From a virus (Duplodnaviria; Heunggongvirae; Uroviricota; Caudoviricetes): a stretch of 64,000 bases of DNA. Location: positions 1-64,000 of IMG/VR virus record IMGVR_UViG_3300023238_000006. One strand, 5' to 3'. The notes under the pieces are model-generated. The model had not been told where the DNA came from and ran no database searches. It saw nothing but the letters and a program-made list of their open reading frames with translations. The position numbers were made by a program, and so were the translations under genes. How positions within the stretch are numbered: position 1 is the first letter of the stretch; each line of letters opens with the position of its first letter. Shown here one piece after another: positions 32,324-62,559 of this stretch.

Positions 32324-32324
32324 A

Positions 32325-32489: not shown

Positions 32490-32589
32490 CATAGGTGTAG
32501 CTGAGGCTATACTAACTATGGGGATATTAATAATATTAATAACGTTCATAGGCACATACTGTGCTGTTGAACACTCTAAGAAAAACTAA
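32482..32589 (+). CDS. Small membrane peptide (35 aa).
   Basis: Manual translation. Confidence 0.25.
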   Translation: MSSIGVAEAILTMGILIILITFIGTYCAVEHSKKN

Positions 32590-32864
32590 ACTACCTTCCT
32601 CCTGGCATTGCTAATACCATATAAGCCCAATGGCGTCTATTGGTCTTCCGCTGACGTACACTCGCTAAGACTAACTCCATTCATCTTCATTGGAGTATAA
32701 CATTAAGATGACCGAGAAGGGCACTATCATACTAACATCCGCAGCTCGGTATATAAAAATAAGAGCAAGGGATGTATGGCGGGACTAATACACCTTGCTT
32801 AATACAAACGTAATACAGAAAGATACTGTATAACAGACCCAGAGGCCGTTGAGGTAACGCTGCG

Positions 32865-32954
32865 GTAGGTGTAAAGTAGTCCGGTAACACTTGGTGTATC
32901 ATTTACCTGCAGAGGTATGCATCTAGATCGCTGGTTCAAATACAGCCACCTACC
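32865..32954 (+). tRNA. tRNA-like element with a 7-bp acceptor GTAGGTG/CACCTAC, a D-arm AAGT..ACTT and a T-arm GCTGG-TTCAAAT-ACAGC. The 37-nt middle region (anticodon/variable) could not be folded by hand.
   Basis: Manual base-pair check. Class II or intron-containing tRNA, or a tRNA-like decoy. Confidence 0.25.
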
Positions 32955-34348: not shown

Positions 34349-34424
34349 GTACCATTAGCTTAATCGGTAAAAAGCGTCGACTATTAAAACATAAGATACT
34401 GGTTTGAATCCAGTATGGTACACA
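34349..34424 (+). tRNA. tRNA-like element with acceptor GTACCAT/ATGGTAC, U8, a D-arm GCTT-AATCGGTAAA-AAGC containing GG, and a T-arm ACTGG-TTTGAAT-CCAGT. The anticodon stem does not pair.
   Basis: Manual folding. Probable degenerate or pseudo-tRNA. Confidence 0.2.
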
Positions 34425-35190
34425 AAACAATGGGGCGAGCATTACAGAGGCAGGATGAATTTGCAACTTCATCAGTGAGTTTGACTCTCACCGCTCCACC
34501 ATGATACCACCTATGAGCATAAGTTATAAGCCAGGAATAAAACCGCCTGCAGTACCGAACAGTAAGGTACAGTGTTACCGGTCCACTTATGTTCTTAGGT
34601 GTTATCACCAGTCCCCAGCTAAGACTTAAAATAAATGCACTCCAAGCCATTATGAGTATAAACCATTGGCAGTACCCGCCGATAGCAGGGGCAGTTTAAG
34701 TGCTAACCAAGTCTCCGGAAGCTCATCTAGGTCAAGACTTTAAACTGACCCTAAACGAAGCAGGTTTTACCGTTGTACCTTAAACAATGGCTACGACTAT
34801 CCCTGTGGGTACATACAGGAAGACAGGATAAGTATACACTGCCTGAAGCGTGTAGTTAGTTGCGCACATCTAACCCAGTGCTGTATGTATCCTCAGGGGT
34901 CGTCTAGCTAAAGAATGACCGCTAATCATAAACTATAGCAGCGTGGCAAACAGAGCTGAAAGACTCAATACCAACCAGAGGTACCGGACGCTATAAAAAT
35001 TCGGGGTAGACGGAGTTAACCATAGGTGTACAACTACTGGTGCAAAAGCAATAAACTTATGAAGGTTATATACTCTCCTTTGGAGATCAAGTATGTAGCC
35101 TTTAGTAAGTTTATACAATACGTAACATAGTACAGATTAAAGCCATAAAAGGTACTTAATCTGTATTATAATAAACATTAAAGGAACCAG

Positions 35191-35537: not shown

Positions 35538-36062
35538 ATGCTTAAATACGGAATAATACTTGGGAGATGTCAGCCCATGCATTTAGGCCACCAACACATT
35601 ATCAACAAAATAATATCGGATGGACTAACACCTGTAGTAGTACTAGGCTCTTCACAAGAAGCTGGTACTACTAAGAACCCATATCATCCACTACAACGTA
35701 TACACATGCTTCGCCTAGTATACCCAGATATCAAATGCTTCGCATTAGATGATGCTGACTGCTGGGACGAATGGTACAACAAGCTTATAAACTCAATAGA
35801 GTTAGTAATAACTGATGACTTATCAGAAGTAACTATCTACCTCCACGACAAACTTGAAGACTTACAAGACTTCACCTTTAGAGGTATAGACTATTTCAAT
35901 GAGTCATACAGCAAAGTCTACGAAGTAGACGGTATGCATACAACTAAGCTAGCTATATCTGATATTCAGATTAGAGCTAAATCAATACGTGAAGACTTAG
36001 AAGGTAATAAACACTTCTTAGATACTAACGTGTATAACTATATAAAGGGACTTAATGACTGA
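35538..36062 (+). CDS. Nicotinamide/nicotinate mononucleotide adenylyltransferase (NadM/archaeal-type NMNAT, 174 aa).
   Basis: GIILGRCQPMHLGHQHII is the G-R-F-Q-P-F-H-x-G-H nucleotidyltransferase signature of NadM-type NMNAT. Confidence 0.7.
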   Translation: MLKYGIILGRCQPMHLGHQHIINKIISDGLTPVVVLGSSQEAGTTKNPYHPLQRIHMLRLVYPDIKCFALDDADCWDEWYNKLINSIELVITDDLSEVTIYLHDKLEDLQDFTFRGIDYFNESYSKVYEVDGMHTTKLAISDIQIRAKSIREDLEGNKHFLDTNVYNYIKGLND

Positions 36063-36603
36063 TACAACAATAGAATGGCAATCCCCTGAGACAACACCAG
36101 CAGGTGATCCGTTCCTAACAGTAAAGAAAGCTAGAGGTTACTACTACTACGCAGAGCGTGGGGGAGTAGACTCTATAGCCTTCGTACTGCTGGATAAAAC
36201 AGCTAACAAGATTGGTCTTATACTAGAGAGTAAACCTCCTATGGATGAAATGGCTTCAATTGAAGTTGACTACATCACTGCATTTGGGGGGTCTATAGAC
36301 TCACCAGACTCTAAGACTGATATAGTTATAACTGAGGTATTAGAGGAAGCTGGTTACGTAGTAACAGCTGATAATGTAACTGAAGTTGGATCAACTGTGG
36401 TATCGACCCAAATGAGTCAAACACTTTACGCCTACACAGTAGACGTTACAGGTATACCTAAGACTGCAGAGACTGAGTACGAGTCTCAAGGTAAAGGTGA
36501 TAGAACACAGTGGATGACATTCACTGAAGCATTAGCAAACTCTGACTGGAAGTCTATATTTATTATGACTATGTTAGGGCACAAGCTAGATGGAGCTAAA
36601 TAA
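36055..36603 (+). CDS. Nudix hydrolase (ADP-ribose pyrophosphatase-like, 182 aa).
   Basis: Nudix-box-like GGSIDSPDSKTDIVITEVLEEAGY. 8-nt overlap with the NMNAT gene. In other phages NMNAT and Nudix are fused as NatV. Confidence 0.6.
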   Translation: MTDTTIEWQSPETTPAGDPFLTVKKARGYYYYAERGGVDSIAFVLLDKTANKIGLILESKPPMDEMASIEVDYITAFGGSIDSPDSKTDIVITEVLEEAGYVVTADNVTEVGSTVVSTQMSQTLYAYTVDVTGIPKTAETEYESQGKGDRTQWMTFTEALANSDWKSIFIMTMLGHKLDGAK

Positions 36604-37997
36604 TGCAATCAATACTAAACCTAGCTGATTCCTACAAATTCTCACATTCAAGCCAGTACCCAAAGAATATGGTAAGTCAATATGACTACATGGAATCACG
36701 TGGGGGCACTTACCCTGCAACAGTATTCGTAGGACTTCAGTACTACTTATTCAAGTACCTAACAGTACCTGTGACTGAGTTAGAAGTAAAACTAACAGCG
36801 GCTAAAGCTGCTCGTCACGGAGTACCTTTCGATCTAAATGGTTGGATGCATATTGTAAACAACTGTGATGGCTTAATTCCCGTAGAAATTAAAGCAGTAC
36901 CAGAAGGCAGCCTAATACCTACCAAGATGGTACTAGTAACTATAGAATCAACAGACACAGCTGTTCCATGGATAGCAGGATTCTTAGAGACTATCTTAAT
37001 GAAGATCTGGTACCCAACTACAATAGCTACTAAATCTTACTACACTCGTAAGATGCTAGAGAAGTACGGAGATCCTGAATGGGCTAAGTTCGCTTACCAC
37101 AACTTCGGAGACCGTGGCGCTACCTCAGTAGAATCTGCAGCTATAGGAGGCTTTGCCCACTACACCCAATTCATGGGAACTGATAACTTCAACTCCCTAG
37201 ACATTGCAGAGAACTACTACGCTACAACAGCCATGCCAGCATACTCAGTATACGCTACCGAGCACTCTAGCACTACCTCACACGGTCGTGAAGGAGAAGA
37301 AGAGTTTGTCTATACTCAGCTATTAGAAAACCCTGGTAAGGCCATCATGAGCTTCGTAGCTGATTCATACGACGTGTATGAGTTTACTAAGTTCTGTACA
37401 GCCCCTAACTCTCGTATTAGAGAACTAATTGAGTCTAGACCTAGCCAAAAGTTAGTCCTCCGCCCTGACTCTGGTAACCCTATTGAAGTGATGACACAGA
37501 TGTTAGCTATAGTTAAAGCCAATAATTGGGGCTATACTGAGACTCCTACAGGATTACTATTCAATCAACTAGGTATCTTATGGGGTGATGGAATCACTCC
37601 TGAAGTAATAGAAGAAATCTTAGCTATGGTACCACGTGTGGGCTATGCAGCTGGGAACTTCATATTTGGAAGTGGTGGTGATCTCATGCAGAACATCACT
37701 AGAGACACTCAGAGGTTTGCTATTAAATGTAGTAGTATCACTGTAGCACATGATGAGTTTATAGGTAATACCTCGTACGAAGAGGTAGATGTCTACAAAG
37801 ACCCTATTACTGACCCTGGTAAAGCCTCTAAACGTGGTAAGGTAACTACTTACATTAGAGAAGATGGTACTTACTTCGTAGACCTGGTAACAAATAAAAC
37901 ACCTGATGCTAAGAATGCTTTAACAACTGTATTCTTAAATGGTACGGTAACTAAAGAGTATACACTAGAAGAGATACGTAACAACTCAAAGGACTAA
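36603..37997 (+). CDS. nadV: Nicotinamide phosphoribosyltransferase (NAMPT/NadV, 464 aa).
   Basis: N-terminal LNLADSYKFSHSSQYP (the DSYK motif of NAMPT/NAPRT). Length is typical. Co-operonic with NMNAT. Confidence 0.75.
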   Translation: MQSILNLADSYKFSHSSQYPKNMVSQYDYMESRGGTYPATVFVGLQYYLFKYLTVPVTELEVKLTAAKAARHGVPFDLNGWMHIVNNCDGLIPVEIKAVPEGSLIPTKMVLVTIESTDTAVPWIAGFLETILMKIWYPTTIATKSYYTRKMLEKYGDPEWAKFAYHNFGDRGATSVESAAIGGFAHYTQFMGTDNFNSLDIAENYYATTAMPAYSVYATEHSSTTSHGREGEEEFVYTQLLENPGKAIMSFVADSYDVYEFTKFCTAPNSRIRELIESRPSQKLVLRPDSGNPIEVMTQMLAIVKANNWGYTETPTGLLFNQLGILWGDGITPEVIEEILAMVPRVGYAAGNFIFGSGGDLMQNITRDTQRFAIKCSSITVAHDEFIGNTSYEEVDVYKDPITDPGKASKRGKVTTYIREDGTYFVDLVTNKTPDAKNALTTVFLNGTVTKEYTLEEIRNNSKD

Positions 37998-37999
37998 CT

Positions 38000-38665
38000 A
38001 TGGCTAAACTATCAATCTGCTGCGTCTCGGACACACATGGTAAACACAGCCAACTAACCCTCTCTAAATACCCGGCTGATGTACTTGTACATGCTGGGGA
38101 TTGGACCGGAGGTAAGGACATAGCCCTAACTGAGACTATAGCCTTCCTAGACTGGTTCTCTGAGCAACCATTTGAACACAAGCTATTCATAGCCGGTAAC
38201 CACGAGAGAACTGTAGAGGCTAACCCCCAAGACTTTCAAGACTTACTAAAGCACTACCCAACTATAGAGTACATTCACCATAAAGCGGTAACTATTTCCG
38301 GTATTAACTTCTACGGCAGTAACTACTCTAACGAGTTCTGTGACTGGGCATTTATGGAAGAAGAGCCTGAACTATCTAAAGTCTGGGACCTAATCCCTAA
38401 TGATACTGATGTCCTTGTGACTCATGGGCCAGCCTATGGCTGTCACGATCAAGTTAAGCATGCTTACGGACGTGATCCCCATGTAGGGAGTAGATCTCTT
38501 CATCATAAGAAACTATCCCTCCAGGATACATTAAAACTCCACATAAGTGGGCACATCCACGAAAGTTATGGCACATCCTCAGATCTATGTATAAATGTAT
38601 GTGCCTCGGTACTAAATGAGAAATATCAATTAGTAAATGAACCAGTAGTAATAACACTACACTAG
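38000..38665 (+). CDS. Calcineurin-like metallophosphoesterase (221 aa).
   Basis: CVSDTHG, GDWTGG, IAGNHE and the later GHIHE are the MPP family motif series. Confidence 0.65.
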   Translation: MAKLSICCVSDTHGKHSQLTLSKYPADVLVHAGDWTGGKDIALTETIAFLDWFSEQPFEHKLFIAGNHERTVEANPQDFQDLLKHYPTIEYIHHKAVTISGINFYGSNYSNEFCDWAFMEEEPELSKVWDLIPNDTDVLVTHGPAYGCHDQVKHAYGRDPHVGSRSLHHKKLSLQDTLKLHISGHIHESYGTSSDLCINVCASVLNEKYQLVNEPVVITLH

Positions 38666-49199: not shown

Positions 49200-49445
49200 G
49201 CCAGTACATAATGGCAAGTACAACTACATAAATGTAGTGTACCTAAACAACAGTACAAAAGTTGAAATTATATGTCCTATTCATGGTGTGTTTTGACAAA
49301 GACCTCAAGACCACGTAAAAGAAAGAGGCTGTAGTGTATGTGGCGGTACAGAATTCAGAATTATGACTACTGAAGATATTAATACTGCTTGCAGTATAGC
49401 CTATTCAATGGCGTATGCTGTTGAGGACAACGAACGAGAAGAGTT
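49200..49445 (+). pseudogene. Decayed remnant of the zinc-ribbon-repeat endonuclease family. ICPIHGVF*QRPQDHVKERGCSVCGG is interrupted by an in-frame TGA.
   Basis: Manual translation of an intergenic AT-rich segment. The repeat signature HG-F-Q-P--H---GC--CG is retained with a stop inside. Confidence 0.5.
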
Positions 49446-50927: not shown

Positions 50928-51176
50928 ATGCAATTACATAAATTAGCCCCAGGTAAATCAAAGTCAACATTCAAAACACTAGAGGCAGAGCTCCACAAGG
51001 TACACGGTAACAAGTACTCTTACTTCTTTGCAGAATACTTAACACCTAAAGGGCAAGCTAAGTACTATAGTGATGATATACTAATAGGAGGAAACTCTGA
51101 ATTATTTAAAACTAATATACTAAAGGATTACGATGATAAAATTGAGCAATACCTCCAAGATGAAAGTAACAGGTAA
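50928..51176 (+). CDS. Hypothetical small protein (82 aa).
   Basis: ORF track. Confidence 0.4.
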   Translation: MQLHKLAPGKSKSTFKTLEAELHKVHGNKYSYFFAEYLTPKGQAKYYSDDILIGGNSELFKTNILKDYDDKIEQYLQDESNR

Positions 51177-51747
51177 AAAAGTCCGTTCATGGAGCTTAGA
51201 AGCAGGAGTAACCTGCCCTATGTCAAAAGATGTAGAGGTGTGTAAAGGGTGCTATGCCTTAAAAGGTATGTATCGGTTTCCTGTAGTTAAGGCTGTAAGG
51301 CAACATAACAGAGAAGACTACAGAACCGCCGACTGGGTTACTAGGATGGTAGCTGAGTGTACTAAACTAGATATGGTACGACTGTTTGACTCCGGAGACT
51401 GTGAGACTGTAGAATTGGCTGAGAAGCTAGAGCAGGTCATAACAGCCTCACCAAAAGTAATTTGGTGGTTCCCTTCAAGAATGGACAAGTCTAAGAATGT
51501 AGGTAAAGTACTTAAACGCATAGCAGCTCTTCCTAACGTAGCTATGAGGCTCTCAGCAGACAACATTGGATTCAAGAAGGAACGAGCAGGAGTTAACTCC
51601 TATGTAATACGGCCCTCAGACATCCCAGAAGCTCAGGCTAAAGGTATCCACCTTTGCCCAGTAACTCTGCCAGGAAGTACTCAGAAGTCTTGTGACAGCT
51701 GTACTGCCTGCTACACAGATACTCCTGTAGCCTACATGGTCCACTAG
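51133..51747 (+). CDS. Cys-rich hypothetical protein (204 aa).
   Basis: ORF track. CPMSKDVEVCKGCY...C...CDSCTAC. Confidence 0.45.
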   Translation: MIKLSNTSKMKVTGKKVRSWSLEAGVTCPMSKDVEVCKGCYALKGMYRFPVVKAVRQHNREDYRTADWVTRMVAECTKLDMVRLFDSGDCETVELAEKLEQVITASPKVIWWFPSRMDKSKNVGKVLKRIAALPNVAMRLSADNIGFKKERAGVNSYVIRPSDIPEAQAKGIHLCPVTLPGSTQKSCDSCTACYTDTPVAYMVH

Positions 51748-51754
51748 GATTGCC

Positions 51755-52405
51755 ATGGGACTAAAACCGCTAAACCAAGCAGACTACATACTAACTATAA
51801 TAAAAGACCTAGGATCTATCCATATAAACGATAGCAAAGGTAAACGTCGTTCAGCACTTTTCAATTGTAAAGTCTGCAACACAGATATTAAGTTAGCAGT
51901 AATTGATGCTAAGAAAGCTACATGTGTAAACTGTCACACCATAGCCAAAGCTAAAGAGGATGAAGCCTATAAGGACTCATCCCTTACCTACGTCTCTGGT
52001 GTTTACTATACACAAAGCTATAAAAACAAAAAGCCTAGGACATTCCTAGTCTCTATGAATGAACTACGATCAGCCCACTACTTTATGCAAAACAACATAA
52101 AGCGTTGGTTCACTGATTACTTCATGGGTATATTCCTAGCAACCCCTCCAGTACCTATAGTAGGACCTTACGAGGTAGCTTATGTATACCACTACAAGAA
52201 TGAAGCTAGTGACCTGGGTAATGTATGTAGCCTCACAGATAAATACTTCTGTGATGCTATACAACTAGCCGGGATAGTACCTGAGGATAATGTTAACTTC
52301 TGTAAGAAGATAACATTTCTAGTAGGTGAGAAAGATGTACTACACCCTAGGGTAGAAGTGCATTTGAGGCCTTATAAGGGCGAAACAAAGGACAACAATG
52401 ATTGA
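51755..52405 (+). CDS. rusA: RusA-like Holliday-junction resolvase with an N-terminal zinc-ribbon extension (216 aa).
   Basis: DLGNVCSLTDKYFCDAIQLAGIVPEDN matches the RusA core DLDNLxKxxLDALTGAGVWxDD. N-terminal CKVCN...CVNCH. Confidence 0.6.
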   Translation: MGLKPLNQADYILTIIKDLGSIHINDSKGKRRSALFNCKVCNTDIKLAVIDAKKATCVNCHTIAKAKEDEAYKDSSLTYVSGVYYTQSYKNKKPRTFLVSMNELRSAHYFMQNNIKRWFTDYFMGIFLATPPVPIVGPYEVAYVYHYKNEASDLGNVCSLTDKYFCDAIQLAGIVPEDNVNFCKKITFLVGEKDVLHPRVEVHLRPYKGETKDNND

Positions 52406-52571
52406 CAGAGAAGCATTAAAGATATCTATAGCAGATACTTTGATTAATAGTTATGAGTACTCAGAGGCTGAAGATATGCTGTTCACTGAGGAAATACTTG
52501 ATGAAGTACTATACCAAATGCACGAAGCTATAGATGAAGAAATAAGCTACGCAATTGAGAGAAGAACATAA
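52398..52571 (+). CDS. Small acidic protein (57 aa).
   Basis: Manual translation. ATGATTGA overlap with the rusA stop. Confidence 0.35.
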   Translation: MIDREALKISIADTLINSYEYSEAEDMLFTEEILDEVLYQMHEAIDEEISYAIERRT

Positions 52572-52646
52572 TGAATAACTTACTAGCACTTTATGAATAC
52601 ATAAAGCTAAAAATAGAGGTAACACTCTACAACATATTTCAAGACG

Positions 52647-53732
52647 ATGGGGGGAGATGTTATGGAGAATTTGAAGATAAACTCTGAGTACCTATTAAAC
52701 TTTCTACACCTCCATTACCAAGAAGTATATGATGCACTGGGAACTACTGAGCATGGGTATTTAGGCAAAGAGCCTAACTCCCACCACTTAGAAGGAACAA
52801 TCCTAACCCATACTAAAATGGTTATGGAAGTTGCTGAAACTACTTACCCTGGTAACATAAATATCCTAGTGACAGCAATGTTACATGATATAGGCAAACC
52901 TTATGTATATGAAGACATCGAGAAGTCTCACCGCAGACGCTTTGCATGTCATGAAGCGCTCAGCACATTTATGGCTAAGCCTATACTACAATATCTAGCT
53001 AACGTTATAGATATTGACCAAGAGTTAATACTAAAGGTAATAGCTCTTCATGGAAGTCTTTACAACTACTTTGAAGATAGCAGGATACCTGCTAATAATC
53101 ATCAGAAGATTGCTGATAAGTTTGGTAATGATCTAACTCTTTTAGAAGCAGTTGCTAACTTTTACTACTGTGACCACACAGGCCGTACTCAAGAGAGCCC
53201 TGGAGACATATCCGGTATCATGAAGGACTTTAAAGCTATAGCTACTTTATTAGTAGAGCCTAACGAACCTATATCTCCAGCTATTACAGTCCTCGTAGGG
53301 CCTCCTAGAGTCGGTAAAAGCACTTGGGTAACCAATCATGCCTTTGATACTACGATTGTCTCTAGAGACGCTCTGGTGGACTCTCACGGGGTAGGTTCTA
53401 CCTACTCTGAAAGATGGAAGTCTTTAAGAAGGGATACTCAAACGTTAATAGACAAAGAGCTGCTAAGCATATTCAACTCGGCTATTAAGGCCAAGAGGGA
53501 TGTAGTAGTAGATATGACTAACATGAGTAAAAAGAGCCGTAAAAAGTGGCTAACAAATGCTAGGGGCTATTACAAGAAAGCTATAGTTTTCATAGAGCCT
53601 AGGGAAGTGTTACTCGCTAGGAACACTCCTGATAAGTACATACCTGAGTACGTAATAGACAACATGATTAAAAGCTTTGTAATGCCTATGTACGACGAAG
53701 TGGACTACATAGAATTATATAAAGGACGGTAA
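52647..53732 (+). CDS. HD-Pnk-type RNA/DNA end-healing enzyme (361 aa) with an N-terminal HD phosphoesterase and a C-terminal P-loop 5'-OH polynucleotide kinase. An alternative start at 52662 has a better SD.
   Basis: HD signature NSHHLEG...LHDIGK. Walker A VLVGPPRVGKST. Adjacent to an Rnl1-type RNA ligase. Confidence 0.65.
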   Translation: MGGDVMENLKINSEYLLNFLHLHYQEVYDALGTTEHGYLGKEPNSHHLEGTILTHTKMVMEVAETTYPGNINILVTAMLHDIGKPYVYEDIEKSHRRRFACHEALSTFMAKPILQYLANVIDIDQELILKVIALHGSLYNYFEDSRIPANNHQKIADKFGNDLTLLEAVANFYYCDHTGRTQESPGDISGIMKDFKAIATLLVEPNEPISPAITVLVGPPRVGKSTWVTNHAFDTTIVSRDALVDSHGVGSTYSERWKSLRRDTQTLIDKELLSIFNSAIKAKRDVVVDMTNMSKKSRKKWLTNARGYYKKAIVFIEPREVLLARNTPDKYIPEYVIDNMIKSFVMPMYDEVDYIELYKGR

Positions 53733-54913
53733 TGAAATTTGACTTACTAACAAGAGATGAGTGCCAAGCAATAACTAAATCATCAGAAGCTTTCTTCTGT
53801 ATGACTAAGCATATTGAAGGACAAGTAGTTGAGCTATACGATTATCGTCTAGCCTCAATCAGTGACTTTGTTGACAACAAGGCCTTTGAACTAAGAGGCT
53901 TATGCTTTGTGCAAGACCCTGCTACTTTAGAATGGACTCGTAACTTACTACTTAATAAGTTCTTCAACATCAACCAAACTATTGGCTGGATGTATGAGGA
54001 GGTTAAGGGTAAGAAAGTTACTAGAGTTCAGAATAAAGAGGATGGATCTGTGGTGTCATTCGTAAAGTTTAAGAATGGTAACATTCGTGCTAAGTCTAAA
54101 ATGTCATTTGAATCTGATCAGGCTGTAATGGCTCAAGAAGTTTATACTACCAACTGTACCATACGTATGATTGTGGGTAGAGGACTAAGAACAGGGTTCA
54201 CTCCCATCTTTGAGCTAGTATCACCAGATAACCAGATTGTTCTTGAATATCAAGACACGGAATTAGTGTTGTTACAAATTAGAAATAACGAAACAGGTGA
54301 GTACCTAAACCCCAAGTTTTTATTTAGTGAAATAGAGTACTATGCTATTAAAACTACGCAGAATTTTCGGATAGAACATCCGCAGGTTGTATTAGACGTC
54401 TTACTAGATGCTAAAACATCCAACCAAGAACCTATAGAAGGCTGGGTAGTAACATTCGAAGATGGTCAAATGGCTAAGATCAAAACTGACCACTACTTAT
54501 CCCTCCACGGACTTATAGGTCCTGATGCCTTTAGAGAAAACTTGCTAGTTAAAACAATCCTAGATGGCAACATTGACGATGTAATATCAGCACTAGTACC
54601 CGGTATCAAACGTGATAAGCTTATAGAGATGAGCAACTTAGTAGAAGCCAACTTCAACCACTTAGTTGTTGAATTCAAAGAGCTACGTCGTAAATACTTT
54701 CAAGACTTCAAAGAAGATCGTAAAAGCTTTGCTATTGCACACAGGACTAAAGTAGCATTCGGTGGTGTGATGAAGACTATTAATAGCTCATTTAGAGATG
54801 TGGAGCAAGTAGCTGAGGAACAAGTGTCTCACTATATCCTTAAGCAATGTAAATCACTTGGTGATGCACAGAACTACCTTAACAAACTAAAGGAATCCAA
54901 TAATGGAATTTAA
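53732..54913 (+). CDS. rnlA: RNA ligase 1 (T4 Rnl1/gp63-like, 393 aa).
   Basis: FELRGLCFV matches T4 LECRGIMFE. KEDGSVVSF has the catalytic Lys as in TKEDGSLVS. LLQIRNNETGEYL matches LLNVRENETGEYI. EGWVVTFEDGQMAKIKTDHYLSLHG matches [25 protein letters not shown]. Confidence 0.8.
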   Translation: MKFDLLTRDECQAITKSSEAFFCMTKHIEGQVVELYDYRLASISDFVDNKAFELRGLCFVQDPATLEWTRNLLLNKFFNINQTIGWMYEEVKGKKVTRVQNKEDGSVVSFVKFKNGNIRAKSKMSFESDQAVMAQEVYTTNCTIRMIVGRGLRTGFTPIFELVSPDNQIVLEYQDTELVLLQIRNNETGEYLNPKFLFSEIEYYAIKTTQNFRIEHPQVVLDVLLDAKTSNQEPIEGWVVTFEDGQMAKIKTDHYLSLHGLIGPDAFRENLLVKTILDGNIDDVISALVPGIKRDKLIEMSNLVEANFNHLVVEFKELRRKYFQDFKEDRKSFAIAHRTKVAFGGVMKTINSSFRDVEQVAEEQVSHYILKQCKSLGDAQNYLNKLKESNNGI

Positions 54914-55724
54914 TTACGAAGCTATGCTTCAATACAACGACGGAATGGCTACATTGCCAGAAGGTGCTTTCAAGATATCCCCTAGTGGGGTCGAGAAGTT
55001 CTTCTCTGACAAAACCACTTGGTATCGTGAGAACCTAATGGGAGCTGATAAGAAGTTCACTGGCTCAACATCAACAGTACTAGGTACTTGTGTACATTTA
55101 TGTGCAGAAGTAGTGGCTAACTCTATTATGGCTAAGGAGGATCACGATAGTGATGCCTTAGCAGCAGCTATAGAAGCTCACATAGACACCTACGAAGGTA
55201 ACGAAGAGTATGATACTGGTAAGATTAGAGGGCTATGGCGTACTATGTCTACTCCTCTAATCCAGGACTATGTGTTGCAGGCTAACACTATTGCAACTGA
55301 AGACTTCATCTCTCATGAGCTACTGCCAGGTATATTCGTAGCTGGAAGCTACGATGCTATTACGTCATCGGCCCCAGGTGATGACTTAATGAATCCTGTT
55401 GGGCAGTTAACTGTAAGGGATTACAAGACTGCTAGCACTAAGCCAGCAAGCTTTAGTTGGGCGTACACACTACAAGCCTACACGTATGCTTATATACTAC
55501 ATCAAAAAGGTATTAAAGTATCGCAAGTAGAACTCTGTTATGCGGTTCAACCAACCAAGACGTTACCTGTCCGCACATTTAGCTTTGTAAAGCCTTTTGA
55601 TGATTCTGCTTATACTATGATAGAAGGTATCCTGCTACTAGTTGCAGACTCTGTGCAGGCCTGGAAAGAATGGCCACAAGGGAGATACCTTTTGGCAAAT
55701 GACTACAGGCTTAAGATTACTTAA
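54903..55724 (+). CDS. PD-(D/E)xK-family nuclease (273 aa), a putative recombination or repair exonuclease.
   Basis: AGSYDAI ... LTVRDYKT is a D...(D/E)xK arrangement. Context only for function. Confidence 0.4.
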   Translation: MEFNYEAMLQYNDGMATLPEGAFKISPSGVEKFFSDKTTWYRENLMGADKKFTGSTSTVLGTCVHLCAEVVANSIMAKEDHDSDALAAAIEAHIDTYEGNEEYDTGKIRGLWRTMSTPLIQDYVLQANTIATEDFISHELLPGIFVAGSYDAITSSAPGDDLMNPVGQLTVRDYKTASTKPASFSWAYTLQAYTYAYILHQKGIKVSQVELCYAVQPTKTLPVRTFSFVKPFDDSAYTMIEGILLLVADSVQAWKEWPQGRYLLANDYRLKIT

Positions 55725-55770
55725 AGGTGTTTGTAGCCATAATACACTTAGATTTAAATAGGAGTTTATA

Positions 55771-56649
55771 ATGGCTAGAAAACTAACACTTAAAGAGTTC
55801 ATAGACAGGGCGACCGCTGTACATGATGCTATGTACGGATACGGCAATGCTGTCTACACCAATAGTAGTACTAAGATAACAATAGTATGTAAGGTACATG
55901 GGTGCTTTACCCAGCAGCCATCTGCACATCTTAACGGGCAAGGATGCCCTACCTGTTCTGGAAGAGGTAACTACAAATTACCAACTTTCAGAAAATTAGT
56001 AGGCATTAAACATAAAGGTAAATACCTATATACCTTTCCTAATGAGTTACATGCAGATACTGTATTAAAGATTGCATGCCCATACCATGGAGAGTTTAAG
56101 CAACGAGCTTCAAGTCACCTAGAGGGTTATGGGTGTAAAGAATGTGCCTATGACACTAAGGCTAATAGCTACGAAGAATTTGTAGCTAGAGCTACTGCAA
56201 AGCATGGCAATGAGTATGGATATACTAAAAACTTATTTAACAAGAGAGATCCGGGTATCTATGCTAATTGTAGCAAGCATGGGCCTTTCACGCAGAATAA
56301 GGGTAACCATTTACAAGGGCATGGGTGCCCTCAATGTTACACTCCTGGGTTCGATAAGAATAAGCCTGGTACTTTGTATTACTTAGAAGTGGTCACTGTT
56401 AGTGGAACCCTGTGGAAAATAGGGATTACTAACAGAACCATAGATGAACGATTCACAGCTAAAGACCTACTGAGTATTACTGTTGTGTACCAACATACTT
56501 TTAAATCTGGCAAAGATGCTAGTGACCTTGAGAAACTGCTGCTTAAGGAGTATAAGCATCTGCAGTACGACGGCGCTAAAGTGCTTAGAGATGGCAACAC
56601 AGAATTATTCACTAGTGATATAACACTCAATGACCCAATGAAGTCTTAA
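55771..56649 (+). CDS. Putative homing-endonuclease-like protein with three zinc-ribbon repeats plus a T5orf172/GIY-YIG-like domain (292 aa).
   Basis: VHGCFTQQPSAHLNGQGCPTCSG, YHGEFKQRASSHLEGYGCKECA, KHGPFTQNKGNHLQGHGCPQCY, then TLYYLEVVTVSGTLWKIGITNRTIDERF. Confidence 0.55.
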   Translation: MARKLTLKEFIDRATAVHDAMYGYGNAVYTNSSTKITIVCKVHGCFTQQPSAHLNGQGCPTCSGRGNYKLPTFRKLVGIKHKGKYLYTFPNELHADTVLKIACPYHGEFKQRASSHLEGYGCKECAYDTKANSYEEFVARATAKHGNEYGYTKNLFNKRDPGIYANCSKHGPFTQNKGNHLQGHGCPQCYTPGFDKNKPGTLYYLEVVTVSGTLWKIGITNRTIDERFTAKDLLSITVVYQHTFKSGKDASDLEKLLLKEYKHLQYDGAKVLRDGNTELFTSDITLNDPMKS

Positions 56650-56699
56650 AACTCATCAAATCAATCATCGGCTAGTTACCGAACAAACAAAGGACACAA

Positions 56700-57365
56700 A
56701 TGTCAGCAATAAAGCTGCTAATATCCGGATTTGAAAATACCGGAAAATCGACGACAGCGTCTCAAATACAAGATGCGCTAGTGATCAACTACGATAGAAA
56801 GACTTATGGTTTCCCAGTCCCTCATATGAATGTGACAGGGTACACCGGCATTGACGACCTGGTAGGCACCATCAACGACAAACTATCAGTATACCAAGAA
56901 CGCTTTGGTAAACTGCCTGCGACAGTTGTTATGGACACTGTTACTCAGTTTTACACGACCATGATGGGCTTTAATGATAACAACTATAAGGGATTTGATG
57001 TTCATAAGAACAACAACCGTGACACACTTAATCTAAATGCATATATAGAAGATGTATTAATAGCTAATGGTGTAAATGTAGTAATTGTGGCACACACAAT
57101 ATTTGATGCAGACACAGCTAGGCATATAATCCCAGCTACTGGGCAATTTGGAAAAGCTGGAAGTTGGCTTAGTGTAGTCAACGATGCTATCTTCATAGAA
57201 AAGAAAAGTGGTAAGTTTGTAATTCACCAAAAGTCTATGAAGTTCCCGTGCCGTACTACCCTCCCAGATGTGCTAGAATCTGTAGACAGCTCTGTTTATG
57301 ATATCAACGCACACATAGCACAACTTACAGCAGCAAAGCTTGAGGCCGCAGAATTTATTCTGTGA
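56700..57365 (+). CDS. RecA-fold P-loop ATPase (221 aa), possibly a Sak4-like recombination ATPase.
   Basis: Walker A LLISGFENTGKST near the N-terminus. Size about 220 aa. The family call is tentative. Confidence 0.4.
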   Translation: MSAIKLLISGFENTGKSTTASQIQDALVINYDRKTYGFPVPHMNVTGYTGIDDLVGTINDKLSVYQERFGKLPATVVMDTVTQFYTTMMGFNDNNYKGFDVHKNNNRDTLNLNAYIEDVLIANGVNVVIVAHTIFDADTARHIIPATGQFGKAGSWLSVVNDAIFIEKKSGKFVIHQKSMKFPCRTTLPDVLESVDSSVYDINAHIAQLTAAKLEAAEFIL

Positions 57366-57411
57366 ACCTTTCACCACTAACAAATTTAAATAAAATAAAC
57401 AAGGACCATTA

Positions 57412-58071
57412 ATGGCATTTTTAATAGTAAAAGAAGAATCAGTTGCAGCAGAAGGCGGCAGCGGTTATATCACAAAATCAGGTATCTACGGCCTAACACT
57501 GAAACACGCAGAAGTATCTACCACACCAAACGGCGCTACACAAATTAATTACTTCTTCGACAAAGCTATGTCATATGGTAACACTATTCTAGGTGTTAAC
57601 GGGCAACCAACATTTGGCTACAAGATCTTGGAAGCACTAGCTTCAGTTCTAGGGCAAGAAGAGTTATCAGATCCTGAGATGACTACAGTAACATTTAAGA
57701 AAGGCCCTAAAGAGTTATCTTGTATCCCAGAATTAAATGATGTGCAAGTTAAAGCTTGGATCCAAATCTCTTACCGTATGTACAAAGGTGAGATTAGAGA
57801 AGATGTAGCTGTACGTCGTTTCTACCGTTCAGCTGACAATGCTTCTGGTTCAGAAGTGCTTTCTGGTACAGACATTGGAGATCGTTACTCTAAAGACGAA
57901 GCAGTAGCTTCTGAAATTAAGTACGACGAAGGTGTGACAGCAGAGAGTGTGGCAGCTTGGAAGAAGAGTCAGCAAACTGGTAGTGGTTCAACACCATCTG
58001 TAGCCGCTGCTTCAGGATTTCCTATGGGTGGAGCCGTTAAGAAACCTTCAGGGTTTCCTGGGGCTCAGTAA
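57412..58071 (+). CDS. Hypothetical protein (219 aa) with a Gly/Ser-rich C-terminal tail. It might be a single-stranded DNA-binding protein.
   Basis: ORF track. Position next to a recombination ATPase. No diagnostic motif. Confidence 0.3.
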   Translation: MAFLIVKEESVAAEGGSGYITKSGIYGLTLKHAEVSTTPNGATQINYFFDKAMSYGNTILGVNGQPTFGYKILEALASVLGQEELSDPEMTTVTFKKGPKELSCIPELNDVQVKAWIQISYRMYKGEIREDVAVRRFYRSADNASGSEVLSGTDIGDRYSKDEAVASEIKYDEGVTAESVAAWKKSQQTGSGSTPSVAAASGFPMGGAVKKPSGFPGAQ

Positions 58072-58364
58072 TGGGTCAAACATTCATTGAAGCACTAACG
58101 GAAGCTATCGCTGGTAACGGCGGTAAGCTCCCATTCCACTTCATACAATCACAAGTAGCACAAGGTACAGTAACTCACACACACCTTACTCCCAATATGA
58201 GAGTATGTGTAATAAGACTTCTTACTGGTCACGAAGTTATTGGTATTGCACAAGTACTTGATGCAGCTAACGACGTAGAAGCACTAGGGCAAGAAGTTGC
58301 CTTAACTAATGCTACTAACGAACTCTGGAAAGTATTTGGTGCAGTTGCACTAGCTGCTAGATAG
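58071..58364 (+). CDS. Hypothetical small protein (97 aa).
   Basis: ORF track. ATG overlaps the upstream stop. Confidence 0.45.
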   Translation: MGQTFIEALTEAIAGNGGKLPFHFIQSQVAQGTVTHTHLTPNMRVCVIRLLTGHEVIGIAQVLDAANDVEALGQEVALTNATNELWKVFGAVALAAR

Positions 58365-58378
58365 CATAAAGGATAACT

Positions 58379-59464
58379 ATGTCAGTAAGAAGACACTTAG
58401 GCTTCGGATCAACCCTAGCCTTTCGCAATCTCTACCCACAAGTAGCCAGACTTACTGACAACGCTGGTAGACTAGCATACGCAAACTACGACCCTTCTCT
58501 AGGGGAGCCTCCAAACGAGGTTCAGCTAGAACTACTTCAAAACTACAAGTGTGACATGCCAACCATTACCTTCACTGGCTCTGAAAAGCTCCACGGTGAG
58601 AATATGGCTGTATGCTACAGTCAGGGGGAACTCTGGGTACAAGGTCGTAACCATATTAGAACTCTACTAGGAGATCAAAACGGTATGGCACAATTCGTTG
58701 AGTCAACTAAAGACCAGTGGTTGGGACTATTTATGGAAATAGGGCATCGAGAAGAACTTGATGACCAGGACCACACTATAGTAATCGACTGTGAATGGGC
58801 TGGCGGCAATATCCAAAAGGGTAATGCCGCTTGCTCAGGAACTGATAAAGGTGCTTACATCTTTGACTACTGTAGAGTTGTTAACAACGATACCAATGAG
58901 AGTGAGTATAAGAGCACTGAAGGGCTTTTCATCCCAACAGATAGCTCAATATACCTTATGAGCTCTTTTGCCTCCTACAGTGCTGTACTGGACTTTAACG
59001 AGCCATCTCAATGTGAGAAGGACTTAGAAAGGATGGCAACAGCTATAGAAGACTCGTCTCCTATAGCAGCTTACTTCGACAAACCTAATAACGTTGGTGA
59101 AGGGGCCTACCTCTGGGCTACCTACAACGGCAATGTCCTACGTCTTAAAGCCAAAGGCTTAAAGCACGGTGGTAAGCCTAAAGTACCTAGAGAGAACTCT
59201 AAAGTACTATCATCTGAAGATGCTAAAGAAATAAATGCCTTTGCTGAAGCTGTAACTCCTGTATGGAGAATCACACAAGCAATAGCTGAATCTGGTGCTA
59301 CTGAACATAAACATATTGGTATGGTTATTAAGTGGGTGCTGACTGACATTGCTAAAGAGGAAGGTCCTCTTATAGCAGCCATAACTGTCGAGTATAAGAA
59401 GACTCACTCTACTATTATTAGTATTGTGAAAGCTTACTATTTAGATAGCCTTAAAGAGTACTAA
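58379..59464 (+). CDS. Rnl2-family RNA ligase (361 aa).
   Basis: Motif I TGSEKLHGENMAV (T4 Rnl2 REKIHGTNFSL). DCEWAGGNIQKGNA matches FGEFAGPGIQKNVD. AYIFDY matches FYVFDI. Confidence 0.65.
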   Translation: MSVRRHLGFGSTLAFRNLYPQVARLTDNAGRLAYANYDPSLGEPPNEVQLELLQNYKCDMPTITFTGSEKLHGENMAVCYSQGELWVQGRNHIRTLLGDQNGMAQFVESTKDQWLGLFMEIGHREELDDQDHTIVIDCEWAGGNIQKGNAACSGTDKGAYIFDYCRVVNNDTNESEYKSTEGLFIPTDSSIYLMSSFASYSAVLDFNEPSQCEKDLERMATAIEDSSPIAAYFDKPNNVGEGAYLWATYNGNVLRLKAKGLKHGGKPKVPRENSKVLSSEDAKEINAFAEAVTPVWRITQAIAESGATEHKHIGMVIKWVLTDIAKEEGPLIAAITVEYKKTHSTIISIVKAYYLDSLKEY

Positions 59465-60003
59465 CCGCTGGCATTCCTGTACTAGGTTTTAAGACCAGCA
59501 ATCTGCTTGAAGTGGCAATCGCAGTGCAACTGCCGTAACAACAGCACAGATGAGTGCAGAGATAACTCCTTCAGCTCACAGAGGTGAATCCTCCAACAAA
59601 AGGCAGTACACAGTCTTCCAGCGTAGCAAACCAAAAGTGAATCCTGGCCGGTATGCGTATACAAACCGTAAGTCCATAGACCCAGCCATTAAGTCTTTAA
59701 AAGAGTTGGCGTTACCATAAAAAATTACCTAGCTAGTGGTACGGCTAGGGGTATAAAACCATCGGAGTTCGTTTAGGACGTGCAGCAAAGCAAGTGGCGT
59801 CTGACATTAAAACGCTTGAACTCTTGACTAGCTAACACCCGTAACAACTATGGTAGTTTTTGGTCTACTTAGGGTAGCACCCGAGCTTGTACTTCATTAT
59901 GGCTAATAGCCTCAGAGTACATTACACACTGGCCCTCTGCCTCAAGTTATCACAACTAAAGTGCACGGTCTTTTATTAAACTAAATTAAAACAAAGGGTC
60001 AAT
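59465..60003. other. ORF-poor region of about 540 nt upstream of nrdA with several hairpins and a repeated GTGAATCCT motif. It is a possible regulatory or ncRNA region.
   Basis: Only one short antisense ORF in the track. Repeats and hairpins read directly (GAGGTGAATCCTCC, AGTGAATCCTGGCC, GCAGTGCAACTGC). Confidence 0.3.
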
Positions 60004-60177
60004 ATGACTGAATTAAACAACATTAAAACACAACTAGAAACAGCATTAGCTTCAATTGAAGCTTACACAACTAAGCCTACTAAAGCAGAGTCTGCACGTA
60101 TACGTAAAGTACTTGGAGAAATTAAGAAACAAGTAACAGGCGTTAGAGCTGCACTAGTAGCTGCTGACAAAGCGTAA
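60004..60177 (+). CDS. Small Lys/Ala-rich protein (57 aa).
   Basis: Manual translation. RBS aaagggtcaatATG. Confidence 0.35.
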   Translation: MTELNNIKTQLETALASIEAYTTKPTKAESARIRKVLGEIKKQVTGVRAALVAADKA

Positions 60178-60348
60178 TAAGCTTCGATACTAAAGACGTT
60201 ACCAATAGTGTAACTAGTGGCGGAGCTAGAGTTATAGGTGGTATATCCCTTCTAATTCTAATGACACTTAATGGCCCGTCTGGTATTGACTTACTAGATG
60301 CTCTAATTATATACGTATCAGCGTTAGCTGGTTAATTAAAGGAACTTA

Positions 60349-62559
60349 ATGGTATACGTAAGAAAACATTCAGGCAACTTGGAGCCTCTAGATATATCCA
60401 AGGGTACAGATAGCCTTGAGTGGGCTATAGGAGATTTAAAAGGGGTGTCAGCATCAGAGATTGAAATTCAATCTAAACTACACTTCTTTGACGGTATCGA
60501 GACTAGCTACATTACGGACGTCTACATAAAGACCTGTGACGACTTAGCTGATCTACGCAACATCAACTACGACGATGTAGCTAGAAATCTTAAACTACAG
60601 AAACTGTATAAAAGAGTATTTGGAGGGATTACACCCACCAACTTGCTAGGCTTCTTAACTGAGCGTGTCGAAGACGGGCACTATTCTAGTAATTTATTAG
60701 ATAACGATAGGCTAAACTACGATGTGCTTAATGCTGAAATAGCTCACAATAGTGACTTCACATTCACATCATCCGGTCTTGACGCTTTAATCAACGGTTA
60801 CGGTGTATGTAAGATGGAGACTCCTCAATTTATGTTCATGGCTATAGCTATCGACATATTTAGAGACTACCATCTAGATCCTATGCCTTACGTTATTAAC
60901 TTCTACCATGCACTTCGTACATTTGAAGTAACACTGCCATCTCCTGAGATGAAAGCCCTTCGTACAAACAGTACTGACTACGCTTCGTGTATTACCTTTA
61001 GAATGGGTGATACCATAGACTCATGGGACGAGTGTGACTCGGCACTACTAAAACACACTGTAGCGTCAGCTGGAGTAGGTATTGATATTGCAGATGTAGC
61101 ATCCCTTGGAGATTCTGTAAAGAATGGTAAGATACGCCATTCTGGTAAGCTACCTATCCTAAAGTCTATAGATACTCATATCCAAAAAGCATCTCAAGAA
61201 GGCAGAAGAGGCTCTGCTACAGGTTATGTAGCTTTCTTTGATCCAGAGATTGAAACTATCTTTGCGTTAAAGTCGCCACGTATGCCTGTAGAAGATCGTA
61301 TCAACGACCTATCCTACGGTATAAAGCTTAATCAACTAGCTTACGACAGAGCAACAGAGGGAGGAGTAATATCCCTATTCTCAGTTAGAAAAGCTCCTAA
61401 AGAACTGTTTGAGGCTTTCTACTCTGGTAACAATGATCTATTCAAGTCTATCTACGAGAAGTGTGAATGTGAAGAACTATACACATCTCAGATAGATGCT
61501 AAAGTGTTCTGGGAAAGGATGATAGCTATTGAGTCCACTGAGACATCTTCGTACTACATCCTAAATATTGACGAAGTAAATCAGAACTCTCATATCACAA
61601 GACCTATACACAACTACAACATCTGTATGGAGTATGGTACAGGCACAGAGCCTTTAAGTTCTGAAAGGCCTGACAGCCCTGATATAGGTGTATGTGTACT
61701 TGGTAATGTAAACCAAGGTAAGGTACCTATAGCTAGGATACCAGCTACCATGGACTTACTGGTGAGAGCACAGTCCCATATCATGACTAGACAAGTACAC
61801 CCTAAGCCTCAGGCTAATGCGTATGTTAATACATATCATGATATTGGGCTAGGGCTATCTAATCACGCATTCTGGCTGGCTGATAATAACCTACGTTATG
61901 GTACCCCCGAGGCTTTAGACAGACATAACGAATGGATGGAACATTTCTCTTTCAATGCTCACGTAGCTTCTGTGCAACTAGCTGAAGAGTTAGGAGCTGC
62001 TAAAGGTTTCGAGTATCATGATAAAGTACTACCTATTGATAGATATAACAGAAACTGCGATGAGTTAGTATCCCCAGACCTTCACTGTGACTGGGAATCA
62101 TTACGTGCTCGTATTAAACAGGTAGGGATGTACAACGTAGGATTAATGATGATACCTCCAGCTGAAACCAGCGCAGGACCATCTAACCAGACAACGTCGC
62201 TAGAGCCTGTACGGAGTTTAATGACTATCAAGGATAAAGCTGGTGTTAACTACAAGCAGTTCGTACCTGATGCCCTTAGACTTGCAGATAAGTATGACTT
62301 CGCGTTTGATAGAGATATCAACATTCCTTTCATTAAGAATGTAGTAGTCAGCCAGAAGTGGCTAGACAAAGGTATCTCTGCTAACACATTCTATAATCCT
62401 GAATGGAAGAACACTAAGATCAGTGCATCCGATGTAATTAAACATTTGTTTATCCTAAAGTACTTCGGTGGCAAGGGTAGGTATTACCAAAACACAAAAC
62501 TGCCTGATGAGGTTGACTCATTAACAGAACAATGCTCAGGAGGTGGATGTAGTGTCTAA
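60349..62559 (+). CDS. nrdA: Ribonucleotide reductase class I large subunit NrdA (736 aa) with an N-terminal ATP-cone.
   Basis: ATP-cone YVRKHSGNLEPLDISKG (cf. VxKRDGxxExFDxxKI). Catalytic HNYNICMEY (N-C-x-E). C-terminal redox pair CSGGGC. Confidence 0.8.
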   Translation: MVYVRKHSGNLEPLDISKGTDSLEWAIGDLKGVSASEIEIQSKLHFFDGIETSYITDVYIKTCDDLADLRNINYDDVARNLKLQKLYKRVFGGITPTNLLGFLTERVEDGHYSSNLLDNDRLNYDVLNAEIAHNSDFTFTSSGLDALINGYGVCKMETPQFMFMAIAIDIFRDYHLDPMPYVINFYHALRTFEVTLPSPEMKALRTNSTDYASCITFRMGDTIDSWDECDSALLKHTVASAGVGIDIADVASLGDSVKNGKIRHSGKLPILKSIDTHIQKASQEGRRGSATGYVAFFDPEIETIFALKSPRMPVEDRINDLSYGIKLNQLAYDRATEGGVISLFSVRKAPKELFEAFYSGNNDLFKSIYEKCECEELYTSQIDAKVFWERMIAIESTETSSYYILNIDEVNQNSHITRPIHNYNICMEYGTGTEPLSSERPDSPDIGVCVLGNVNQGKVPIARIPATMDLLVRAQSHIMTRQVHPKPQANAYVNTYHDIGLGLSNHAFWLADNNLRYGTPEALDRHNEWMEHFSFNAHVASVQLAEELGAAKGFEYHDKVLPIDRYNRNCDELVSPDLHCDWESLRARIKQVGMYNVGLMMIPPAETSAGPSNQTTSLEPVRSLMTIKDKAGVNYKQFVPDALRLADKYDFAFDRDINIPFIKNVVVSQKWLDKGISANTFYNPEWKNTKISASDVIKHLFILKYFGGKGRYYQNTKLPDEVDSLTEQCSGGGCSV

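Follow-up and report, generated by a model that had tools for sequence, protein, structure and literature searches.

Background

Because tRNA-cutting defences are found widely, the repair toolkit of phages is of current interest. Enzymes of the HD-Pnk type, in which an HD phosphoesterase domain precedes a P-loop polynucleotide kinase domain, have reportedly been described in bacteria, that of Runella slithyformis by Munir and Shuman in 2017 and DR_B0098 of Deinococcus radiodurans by Schmier and Shuman in 2018. In phage T4, Pnkp and the RNA ligase Rnl1 reverse anticodon-nuclease damage (PMC7824862, PMC12445682); some tRNases are not reparable by a Pnkp-Rnl1-like route (PMC12445682). According to comparative genomics, the ATP-dependent RNA ligases of phages occur together with polynucleotide kinases and phosphoesterases, the phosphatase of some jumbo phages being 'calcineurin-like and HD-like' (PMC7824862). 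Here we describe an HD-Pnk gene and an adjoining Rnl1 gene in a virus of the Caudoviricetes, IMG/VR record IMGVR_UViG_3300023238_000006, of which positions 1 to 64,000 were analysed (hereafter 'the window'). We conclude, with a probability of roughly 0.65, that the window carries a two-gene RNA break-repair cassette which is inserted in the recombination block of a large uncultured phage, and whose likeliest role is to undo the cleavage of tRNAs by anticodon nucleases.

Results

The healing enzyme

Read from the ATG at 52647, the first gene of the pair is an open reading frame (ORF) of 361 aa (52647-53732), and the residue numbers given here refer to this form. The protein matches the Pfam HD family (PF01966) at residues 53-140, with 24.6 bits against a cutoff of 22, and AAA_33 (PF13671) at residues 214-327 (E = 3.5e-15); phrog_6931 spans it entirely (E = 2e-54). 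An HD phosphoesterase domain occupies approximately residues 36-180 at the N-terminus, and a P-loop 5'-OH polynucleotide kinase domain approximately residues 210-357 at the C-terminus. We found no match to a HAD (DxDxT) 3'-phosphatase domain in the protein, the non-kinase half of which is the N-terminal HD domain. A first-pass annotation, made by a model from the letters and their ORFs, had assigned this gene an HD-Pnk architecture as distinct from the kinase-HAD architecture of T4, and the Pfam matches bear it out. The protein would thus resemble Pnkp in its working, yet it stands outside the T4-type Pnkp family (kinase plus HAD). Translation is more likely to start at the ATG at 52662 than at 52647, as a Shine-Dalgarno sequence (GGGGGAG) lies 5 nt upstream of the former; the product of the gene caller, P0001 (356 aa), is consistent with this start, and the ATG at 52647 falls in sequence which is conserved among relatives as a piece of another small ORF.

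A database search yielded 83 homologues, nearly all of which are 340-400 aa in length and have the same pair of HD and AAA_33 domains. In alignments of 31 and 43 homologues the HD metal-site residues H47, H80-D81, H102, H135 and D176 are invariant, as are K224, D289, T291 and R298 of the kinase; S225, which together with K224 makes up the P-loop of the kinase domain, and D241 show at least 90% conservation. This is a large family, with 1,045 matches at E <= 1e-30 when 1.84 billion cluster representatives were scanned; E is <= 1e-90 for each of the best 150, which are nearly all single full-length alignments through both domains.

We compared the family profile with sequences in the PDB. The C-terminal half matches PSTK, Pnkp1, Clostridium thermocellum Pnkp, T4 Pnk and mammalian PNKP, and the closest solved relatives of the kinase domain are the CthPnkp/Pnkp1 structures 4gp7 and 4xrp (comparison values: C. 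thermocellum Pnk 15.1, T4 Pnk 14.9, PSTK 14.5). The N-terminal half matches the HD domain of class II tRNA nucleotidyltransferases (3wfo, E = 5e-7) and, after it, Cas3 HD domains. Membership of a dNTPase family, which would have been unrelated to end healing, was looked for and not found: the comparison value is 14.4 for the tRNA nucleotidyltransferase HD domain and 8.6 for a SAMHD1 orthologue, and the HD domain falls with that of the class II tRNA nucleotidyltransferases and apart from dNTPases of the SAMHD1/Dgt type.

Among bacterial proteins, DR_B0098 was identified via PMC6300522 and from its position in an operon of the D. radiodurans plasmid MP1. When the family profile was aligned with it (hhalign; probability 99.2%, E = 8.4e-20), residues 40-359 were paired with 41-404, with both domains co-linear and the HD and P-loop motifs in register. 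The protein of the window is a true HD-Pnk. A tblastn search of plasmids did not recover D. radiodurans MP1, and a contig search with the family alignment, which used one peptide pattern only, returned a single contig from a metagenome-assembled genome and is no measure of bacterial distribution.

The sealing enzyme

The second gene encodes a 393-aa protein which matches RNA_lig_T4_1 (PF09511, E = 2.2e-20), the T4 gp63 family phrog_562 (E = 1.5e-62, profile positions 17-368 of 377) and the T4 Rnl1 structures 2c5u and 5tt6 (E = 5e-33), and which TIGR02308 covers across profile positions 12-364 of 373. When the protein is aligned with T4 Rnl1 and seven homologues from phages, K102 of motif I (NKEDGS), D104 and G105 are invariant, and so are R55, K76, K123, E161, E236-G237, K249 and K251; all counterparts of the essential residues of T4 Rnl1 are conserved. 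The alignment with T4 Rnl1 reaches the C-terminus and includes the Rnl1-specific domain, in which D282-D283 and K331 are invariant. In T4, this all-helical domain confers specificity for tRNA repair. The protein is, on its conserved residues, a genuine Rnl1-family ligase, and its gene directly follows HD-Pnk, as had been proposed.

All four ORFs named in the first-pass annotation (the two above, a nuclease and a second ligase) are present on the + strand at the coordinates given in Table 1. Their family assignments have scores above the Pfam gathering score, including those for HD, AAA_33, RNA_lig_T4_1 and RNA_ligase, and the catalytic residues (the HD histidines and aspartates, and the ligase lysines in KEDG and KLHG) are present and conserved across homologues.

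Boundaries of the insert

To place the pair in its surroundings, viral contigs were fetched with the nuclease as bait and the genes of the window were mapped onto them. In four relatives (L015, L016, L017 and L018) the order is (GP88,) RusA-like, PD-(D/E)xK nuclease, Sak4, SSB, with neither HD-Pnk nor Rnl1. The module genes of these relatives (RusA-like, PDDEXK, Sak4 and SSB) are 65-81% identical to those of the window (nuclease 66-74%, Sak4 74-81%), and the gap between the RusA-like and nuclease genes is just 95-275 bp. A fifth relative, L116, has the RusA-like gene (92% identity over its full length), a 38-aa ORF, HD-Pnk (76%) and Rnl1 (75%), with an HNH endonuclease gene next in line. The cassette is thus polymorphic among close relatives at a fixed site, being present in the window and L116 and absent from L015-L018; an accessory gene set would be expected to vary in this way.

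The left junction was set from the small 38-aa ORF, which is common to L016, L017 and L116, as the DNA alignments with L015 and L018 at this junction were too diverged for use. The ORF is 66% identical over 32 aa to L016 5735-5830 (by tblastn), its first ~29 codons being conserved, and similarity to L016 stops at approximately 52657, 5 bases ahead of the HD-Pnk ATG. HD-Pnk and Rnl1 therefore form a clean 2.2-kb insert of exactly two genes, at approximately 52658-54902. The HD-Pnk stop and the Rnl1 ATG have one base in common (TAATG), and the end of Rnl1 shares 11 nt with the start of the nuclease gene (ATGN8TAA); these overlaps point to a single translationally coupled unit. A repeat search around the insert found no direct or inverted repeats that mark the junctions, and the short two-copy matches were at chance level.

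The nuclease had been described as part of the RNA-repair cluster. Its identity as a PD-(D/E)xK enzyme stands (PDDEXK_1; phrog_69 and phrog_1218, both named 'exonuclease', also match), but its membership of the cluster does not. Since it is kept with the RusA-like, Sak4 and SSB genes in relatives which lack HD-Pnk and Rnl1, the nuclease is part of the recombination module, and a role for it as an RNA-repair component was rejected on the synteny of L015-L018.

Between the nuclease and Sak4 genes, the window has a DUF723/T5orf172 gene of which no homologue is found at this place in L015, L016, L017, L018 or L019 (the last a fragment near-identical to L018 which starts within the nuclease gene, the cassette site lying outside it). 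This gene may bear on local gene mobility. It is one of three DUF723/T5orf172 paralogues in the window, the other two being at 4965-5738 (- strand) and 26797-27846 (+ strand), and a short DUF723-like remnant is found in intergenic sequence at approximately 49204-49347. Homing endonuclease genes flank rnlA in T4 and HD-Pnk in Campylobacter phages; in L116 the HNH gene abuts the cassette, and in the window the DUF723/T5orf172 gene is one gene off. Tentatively, and with more doubt than conviction, we suggest that HD-Pnk and Rnl1 may be a self-contained mobile counter-defence cassette which crosses unrelated phage lineages, possibly with homing endonucleases. The identity between the window and L116, 75-76% for the cassette and 92% for the RusA-like protein, is compatible with faster evolution or with exchange of the cassette.

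Linkage of HD-Pnk and ligase genes in other viruses

With HD-Pnk as bait, we obtained viral loci, 23 of them distinct at 95% identity, and searched these with purpose-built profiles. A ligase is linked to HD-Pnk at 15 of the 23: Rnl1 at 12, on the same strand and 0-4.6 kb away, and an Rnl2-type ligase at three, likewise on the same strand and 0-2.9 kb away. The Rnl2-type gene overlaps HD-Pnk in L030/L031 and lies 214 bp upstream of it in L003. Conversely, a full-length HD-Pnk was found within 3 kb at four of the five loci fetched with Rnl1 as bait. Genetic linkage of HD-Pnk to an ATP-dependent polynucleotide ligase thus holds in the window, where HD-Pnk overlaps Rnl1, and beyond it, and in many uncultured phages the partner of the HD-type healing enzyme is either Rnl1 or an Rnl2-type ligase. 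In the Campylobacter phage F360 an Rnl1-like gene, to which GenBank gives the name 'putative RNA ligase', lies 0.9 kb downstream of the HD-Pnk gene, there named 'putative polynucleotide 5' kinase and 3' phosphatase'; in CPt10 the HD-Pnk and Rnl1 homologues are distant from each other in the genome.

At five further loci (L051, L053, L078, L094 and L100) the gene directly beside Rnl1 encodes a stand-alone kinase of 155-175 aa that is homologous to the Pnk half of HD-Pnk, a hint that healing domains are combined with Rnl1 in modular fashion. At L110-L112, which have HD-Pnk homologues (P0013, P0021) and no nearby ligase, the gene lies near genes of the 7-deazaguanine (queuosine-type) modification type, namely those for GTP cyclohydrolase I, PTPS, a radical-SAM Fer4_12 protein and PAPS_reduct, and also a PhoH/PIN gene.

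The second ligase

The 361-aa ORF downstream of the recombination genes matches RNA_ligase (PF09414, E = 3.5e-8; 34.2 bits against a cutoff of 27) and phrog_548, 'RNA ligase' (E = 1.4e-29). Across 29 homologues the Rnl2-type motifs K70 (EKLHGEN), E139-W140, E241-G242 and K257/K259 are invariant or nearly so. A single-sequence search of the PDB gave no match for this ligase; a profile of the 29 homologues matches T4 Rnl2 (2hvq, E = 3.9e-8) through both the nucleotidyltransferase and the C-terminal domains, with profile positions 248-330 of the latter aligned with T4 Rnl2 residues 218-301. In fold, an AlphaFold2 model (predicted local distance difference test score, pLDDT, 88.7) comes closest to full-length T4 Rnl2 (E = 2e-10, 319 columns) and next to a trypanosome editing ligase. 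Homologues in cultured phages carry the annotation 'RNA ligase 2'. An Rnl2-family ligase had been proposed here at a distance of 3.6 kb; the family was correct, and the gene starts 3.47 kb past the end of Rnl1.

As the Rnl2-type gene directly follows SSB in L018 and L019, it is a backbone gene in part of this lineage and would encode a separate sealing enzyme. It is paired with HD-Pnk in other phages (L003, L030/L031 and L105). As the partner of HD-Pnk in the window it was rejected, because it is a backbone gene also present in L018, which is cassette-less at this site. One homologue, P0098 (511 aa, 62% identity), is fused to a Pol-beta-type nucleotidyltransferase domain (PF18765), a fusion which recalls the RNA-ligase-associated nucleotidyltransferases (PMC7824862).

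Genomic context

The cassette lies in a long series of + strand ORFs, which extends over 50-61 kb of the window (Table 1).

Table 1. Predicted features of the cassette, its neighbourhood and the NAD+ salvage-like cluster, in window coordinates
Feature	Coordinates	Strand	Evidence or remark
CTP_transf_like (NMNAT-like) gene	35538-36062		
NAMPT/NAPRTase gene	36603-37997		
Calcineurin-like metallophosphoesterase	38000-38665		
GP88-family gene			Upstream of RusA-like; Pfam/PHROGs
RusA-like resolvase, 216 aa	51755-52405	+	
Strongly acidic ORF, 57 aa	52398-52571		Between RusA-like and 38-aa junction ORF
Small backbone ORF, 38 aa	52571-52687	+	Left junction marker
HD-Pnk	52662-53732 (alternative upstream ATG 52647)	+	HD and P-loop kinase
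Rnl1-family ATP-dependent RNA ligase, 393 aa	53732-54913	+	PF09511
PD-(D/E)xK (RecB / lambda-Exo / Cas4-like) exonuclease, 273 aa	54903-55724	+	PDDEXK_1 E = 4e-13
DUF723/T5orf172 homing-endonuclease-like gene	55771-56649	+	T5orf172 E = 8e-6; phrog_681 E = 1e-50
Sak4-like annealase	56700-57365	+	Pfam/PHROGs
SSB	57412-58071	+	Pfam/PHROGs
N4 gp49-like gene	58071-58364	+	Pfam/PHROGs
Rnl2-family ATP-dependent RNA ligase, 361 aa	58379-59464	+	PF09414

The phage had been placed in a 'T7-supergroup'. We do not retain this placement: it goes back to a family-A DNA polymerase which is 29% identical to T7-like enzymes, and proteins identical to those of this phage are found on contigs of 66, 97 and 111 kb, the larger two of which show that it is not of T7 size. 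No close cultured relative was matched when positions 52000-60000 were searched by megablast against 50,697 phage records. A scan of 51000-60400 for promoters and terminators gave counts not above those in shuffled sequence (16 against 21 expected, and 8 against 5.8, respectively), so no cassette-specific signals can be claimed. PADLOC returned only weak echoes of Cas3-HD and Cas4 domains, with no evidence for identity as a defence system.

Two neighbours on the left of the cassette differ from their counterparts elsewhere. The RusA-like protein is longer in the window than in L016/L018 (216 aa versus 157-169 aa), having an additional ~80 aa at the N-terminus with a CxxC...CxxC zinc-ribbon-like motif, and the 57-aa acidic ORF has a homologue in none of the fetched relatives, L116 included.

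Elsewhere in the window, the first-pass annotation had pointed to tRNA-like elements. One such element is found, and the plural does not hold: ARAGORN detected no tRNA genes in the whole 64-kb window, and Rfam gave one tRNA match above threshold, a degenerate element at 34349-34422 on the + strand (46.7 bits) with good acceptor, D and T arms and an unpaired anticodon stem. This match lies in a stretch of about 2.9 kb without a called gene (32324-35190), which also contains a sub-threshold Tymo_tRNA-like match (34049-34115), T-arm-like hairpins of the form GTGAG(N7)CTCAC at 34088 and 34475, and three copies of a 47-nt repeat (33144, 34508 and 34800). Degenerate tRNA-like or other non-coding RNAs may be arrayed here. 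Beyond it lies an NAD+ salvage-like cluster of three genes (35538-38665). Phage NAD+ reconstitution pathways counter NAD-depleting defences, and this cluster resembles them; if the resemblance is true, the cluster would be a second counter-defence module in the window.

Discussion

Role of the cassette

In the pathway we propose, a host ribonuclease would cut RNA to leave one end with a 2',3'-cyclic phosphate (or 3'-phosphate) and another with a 5'-OH. The HD domain of HD-Pnk would strip the 3'-terminal phosphate to give a 2'-OH, 3'-OH end, and its P-loop domain would phosphorylate the 5'-OH. Rnl1, adenylylated on K102, would then join the 3'-OH and 5'-PO4 ends, most likely in the anticodon loop of a tRNA as T4 Rnl1 does. 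We infer these enzyme activities, the tRNA substrate and the counter-defence role from sequence and by analogy. Given the T4 precedent and the way in which the cassette is distributed as an accessory, a role against host anticodon nucleases would be the likeliest, and PrrC, RloC, retron or VapC-type immunity would be a reasonable target to expect from the T4 precedent. The HD phosphoesterase, unlike the HAD phosphatase of T4, may also widen the range of RNA ends that can be repaired, including those with a 2'-phosphate.

A number of observations weigh against this role and need to be set beside it. No defence system can be named for this phage. The P-loop clade of the kinase includes PSTK, and sequence alone does not fix the substrate of the kinase. 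The Rnl1 protein scores 151.9 bits with the NCBIfam equivalog model for T4 RnlA, which does not reach the cutoff of 242.25; we therefore call it an Rnl1-family ligase and claim neither functional equivalence to T4 RnlA nor an identical substrate specificity. At eight of the 23 HD-Pnk loci neither ligase is found in the available flank of 3.7-6 kb. Characterised bacterial HD-Pnks take DNA as well as RNA ends, to go by the title of the 2017 paper of Munir and Shuman (cited in PMC6097658); DR_B0098 of D. radiodurans contributes to resistance to DNA damage and is needed for resistance to radiation (PMC6300522); and the cassette, flanked by the RusA-like and exonuclease genes, lies within a DNA recombination block to which the overlap with the exonuclease start couples it translationally. 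These last points, together with the fact that no DNA ligase gene is seen in the 64-kb window, would suit a function in DNA end-healing for RusA/exonuclease/Sak4/SSB recombination or repair, in which HD-Pnk would clean 3'-phosphate and 5'-OH DNA ends left by host nucleases or damage and one of the ligases would seal nicks in DNA or RNA-DNA hybrids. However, the coupled partner is not a DNA ligase but an Rnl1 with the Rnl1-specific C-terminal domain, HD-Pnk-Rnl1 linkage is also found in phages without recombination genes nearby, and relatives run the same recombination module without the cassette. Because of the nature of the partner and the cassette-less relatives, we rate a role at DNA ends below the repair of cleaved tRNAs, and regard it as quite improbable.

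Repair of tRNAs cut by anticodon nucleases also has to be distinguished from RNA repair or processing in general. Such a function could be to mend mRNA, rRNA or tRNA-like RNAs, of the phage or its host, after cleavage by toxin-type endoribonucleases, or to mature a phage RNA. The enzyme chemistry would be identical, the phage also has an Rnl2-type nick-sealing ligase, and the 2.9-kb gene-free stretch has a degenerate tRNA-like element; nevertheless we consider this broader function unlikely, as the known natural substrate of Rnl1 is the broken anticodon loop of a tRNA (the T4 precedent), no processing target was identified, and the pattern of presence and absence fits accessory counter-defence better than essential processing. 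It is much harder to see Rnl1 as chiefly a catalyst of tail-fibre attachment, the second activity of T4 gp63, with HD-Pnk engaged in unrelated nucleotide metabolism. PHROG 562 is indeed named 'RNA ligase and tail fiber protein attachment catalyst', but every ligase catalytic residue is conserved, the gene is coupled to an end-healing enzyme and stands among early replication and recombination genes, not tail genes, and the recurrent linkage to HD-Pnk would be left unexplained; we give this explanation hardly any credence.

The locus is a clean natural comparison: close relatives exist with and without the 2.2-kb HD-Pnk/Rnl1 insert at one site. The phage HD-Pnk would also be worthwhile for biochemistry, as a candidate alternative to the classic T4 Pnkp.

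Comparison with known systems

T4 Pnkp (pseT) and Rnl1 (gp63) would functionally constitute the same heal-and-seal pathway as the pair in the window. The healing enzymes, however, are non-orthologous in their phosphatase modules: that of T4 Pnkp is a HAD (DxDxT) phosphatase C-terminal to the kinase, whereas that of the window is an HD metal-dependent phosphoesterase N-terminal to it. The genes also differ from those of T4 in being adjacent and overlapping.

In domain composition, order and approximate size the window protein is like the bacterial HD-Pnk proteins of R. slithyformis and D. radiodurans, to which it is ~23% identical, and it shares with them an operon link to an ATP-dependent ligase. 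It lacks the inter-domain insert of ~50 aa in the Deinococcus protein, and its partner is a phage Rnl1 (in other phages an Rnl2-type ligase) whereas that of the bacterial enzymes is a 'LIG' protein. In Runella, LIG left standard substrates unsealed (PMC6097658). The role so far documented for bacterial HD-Pnk is DNA-damage resistance.

Closer in sequence (31% identity) are the full-length HD-Pnk homologues of Campylobacter phages (Fletchervirus F360 and CP30A; Firehammervirus CPt10 and CP220), which are distant myoviruses. Their HD-Pnk and ligase genes do not overlap, and in Firehammervirus the Rnl1 homologue is far off in the genome; the literature searched held no biochemical characterisation of these enzymes. 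The closest solved kinase domain and the same heal-and-seal logic are found in C. thermocellum Pnkp/Hen1 and Capnocytophaga Pnkp1/Rnl/Hen1, but those systems have 3' healing by a binuclear metallophosphoesterase, a ligase domain of their own and the 2'-O-methyltransferase Hen1, none of which is present in the window pair. The class II (CCA-adding) tRNA nucleotidyltransferases have a related HD domain; HD-Pnk of the window lacks their nucleotidyltransferase head and has its HD domain fused to a kinase.

The architecture, which the first-pass annotation had implied to be novel, is accordingly that of an already described family, and phage copies beside RNA ligases are annotated in GenBank. The locus does not represent a new kind of system; it adds a phage member to a known enzyme family and to a known pathway logic.

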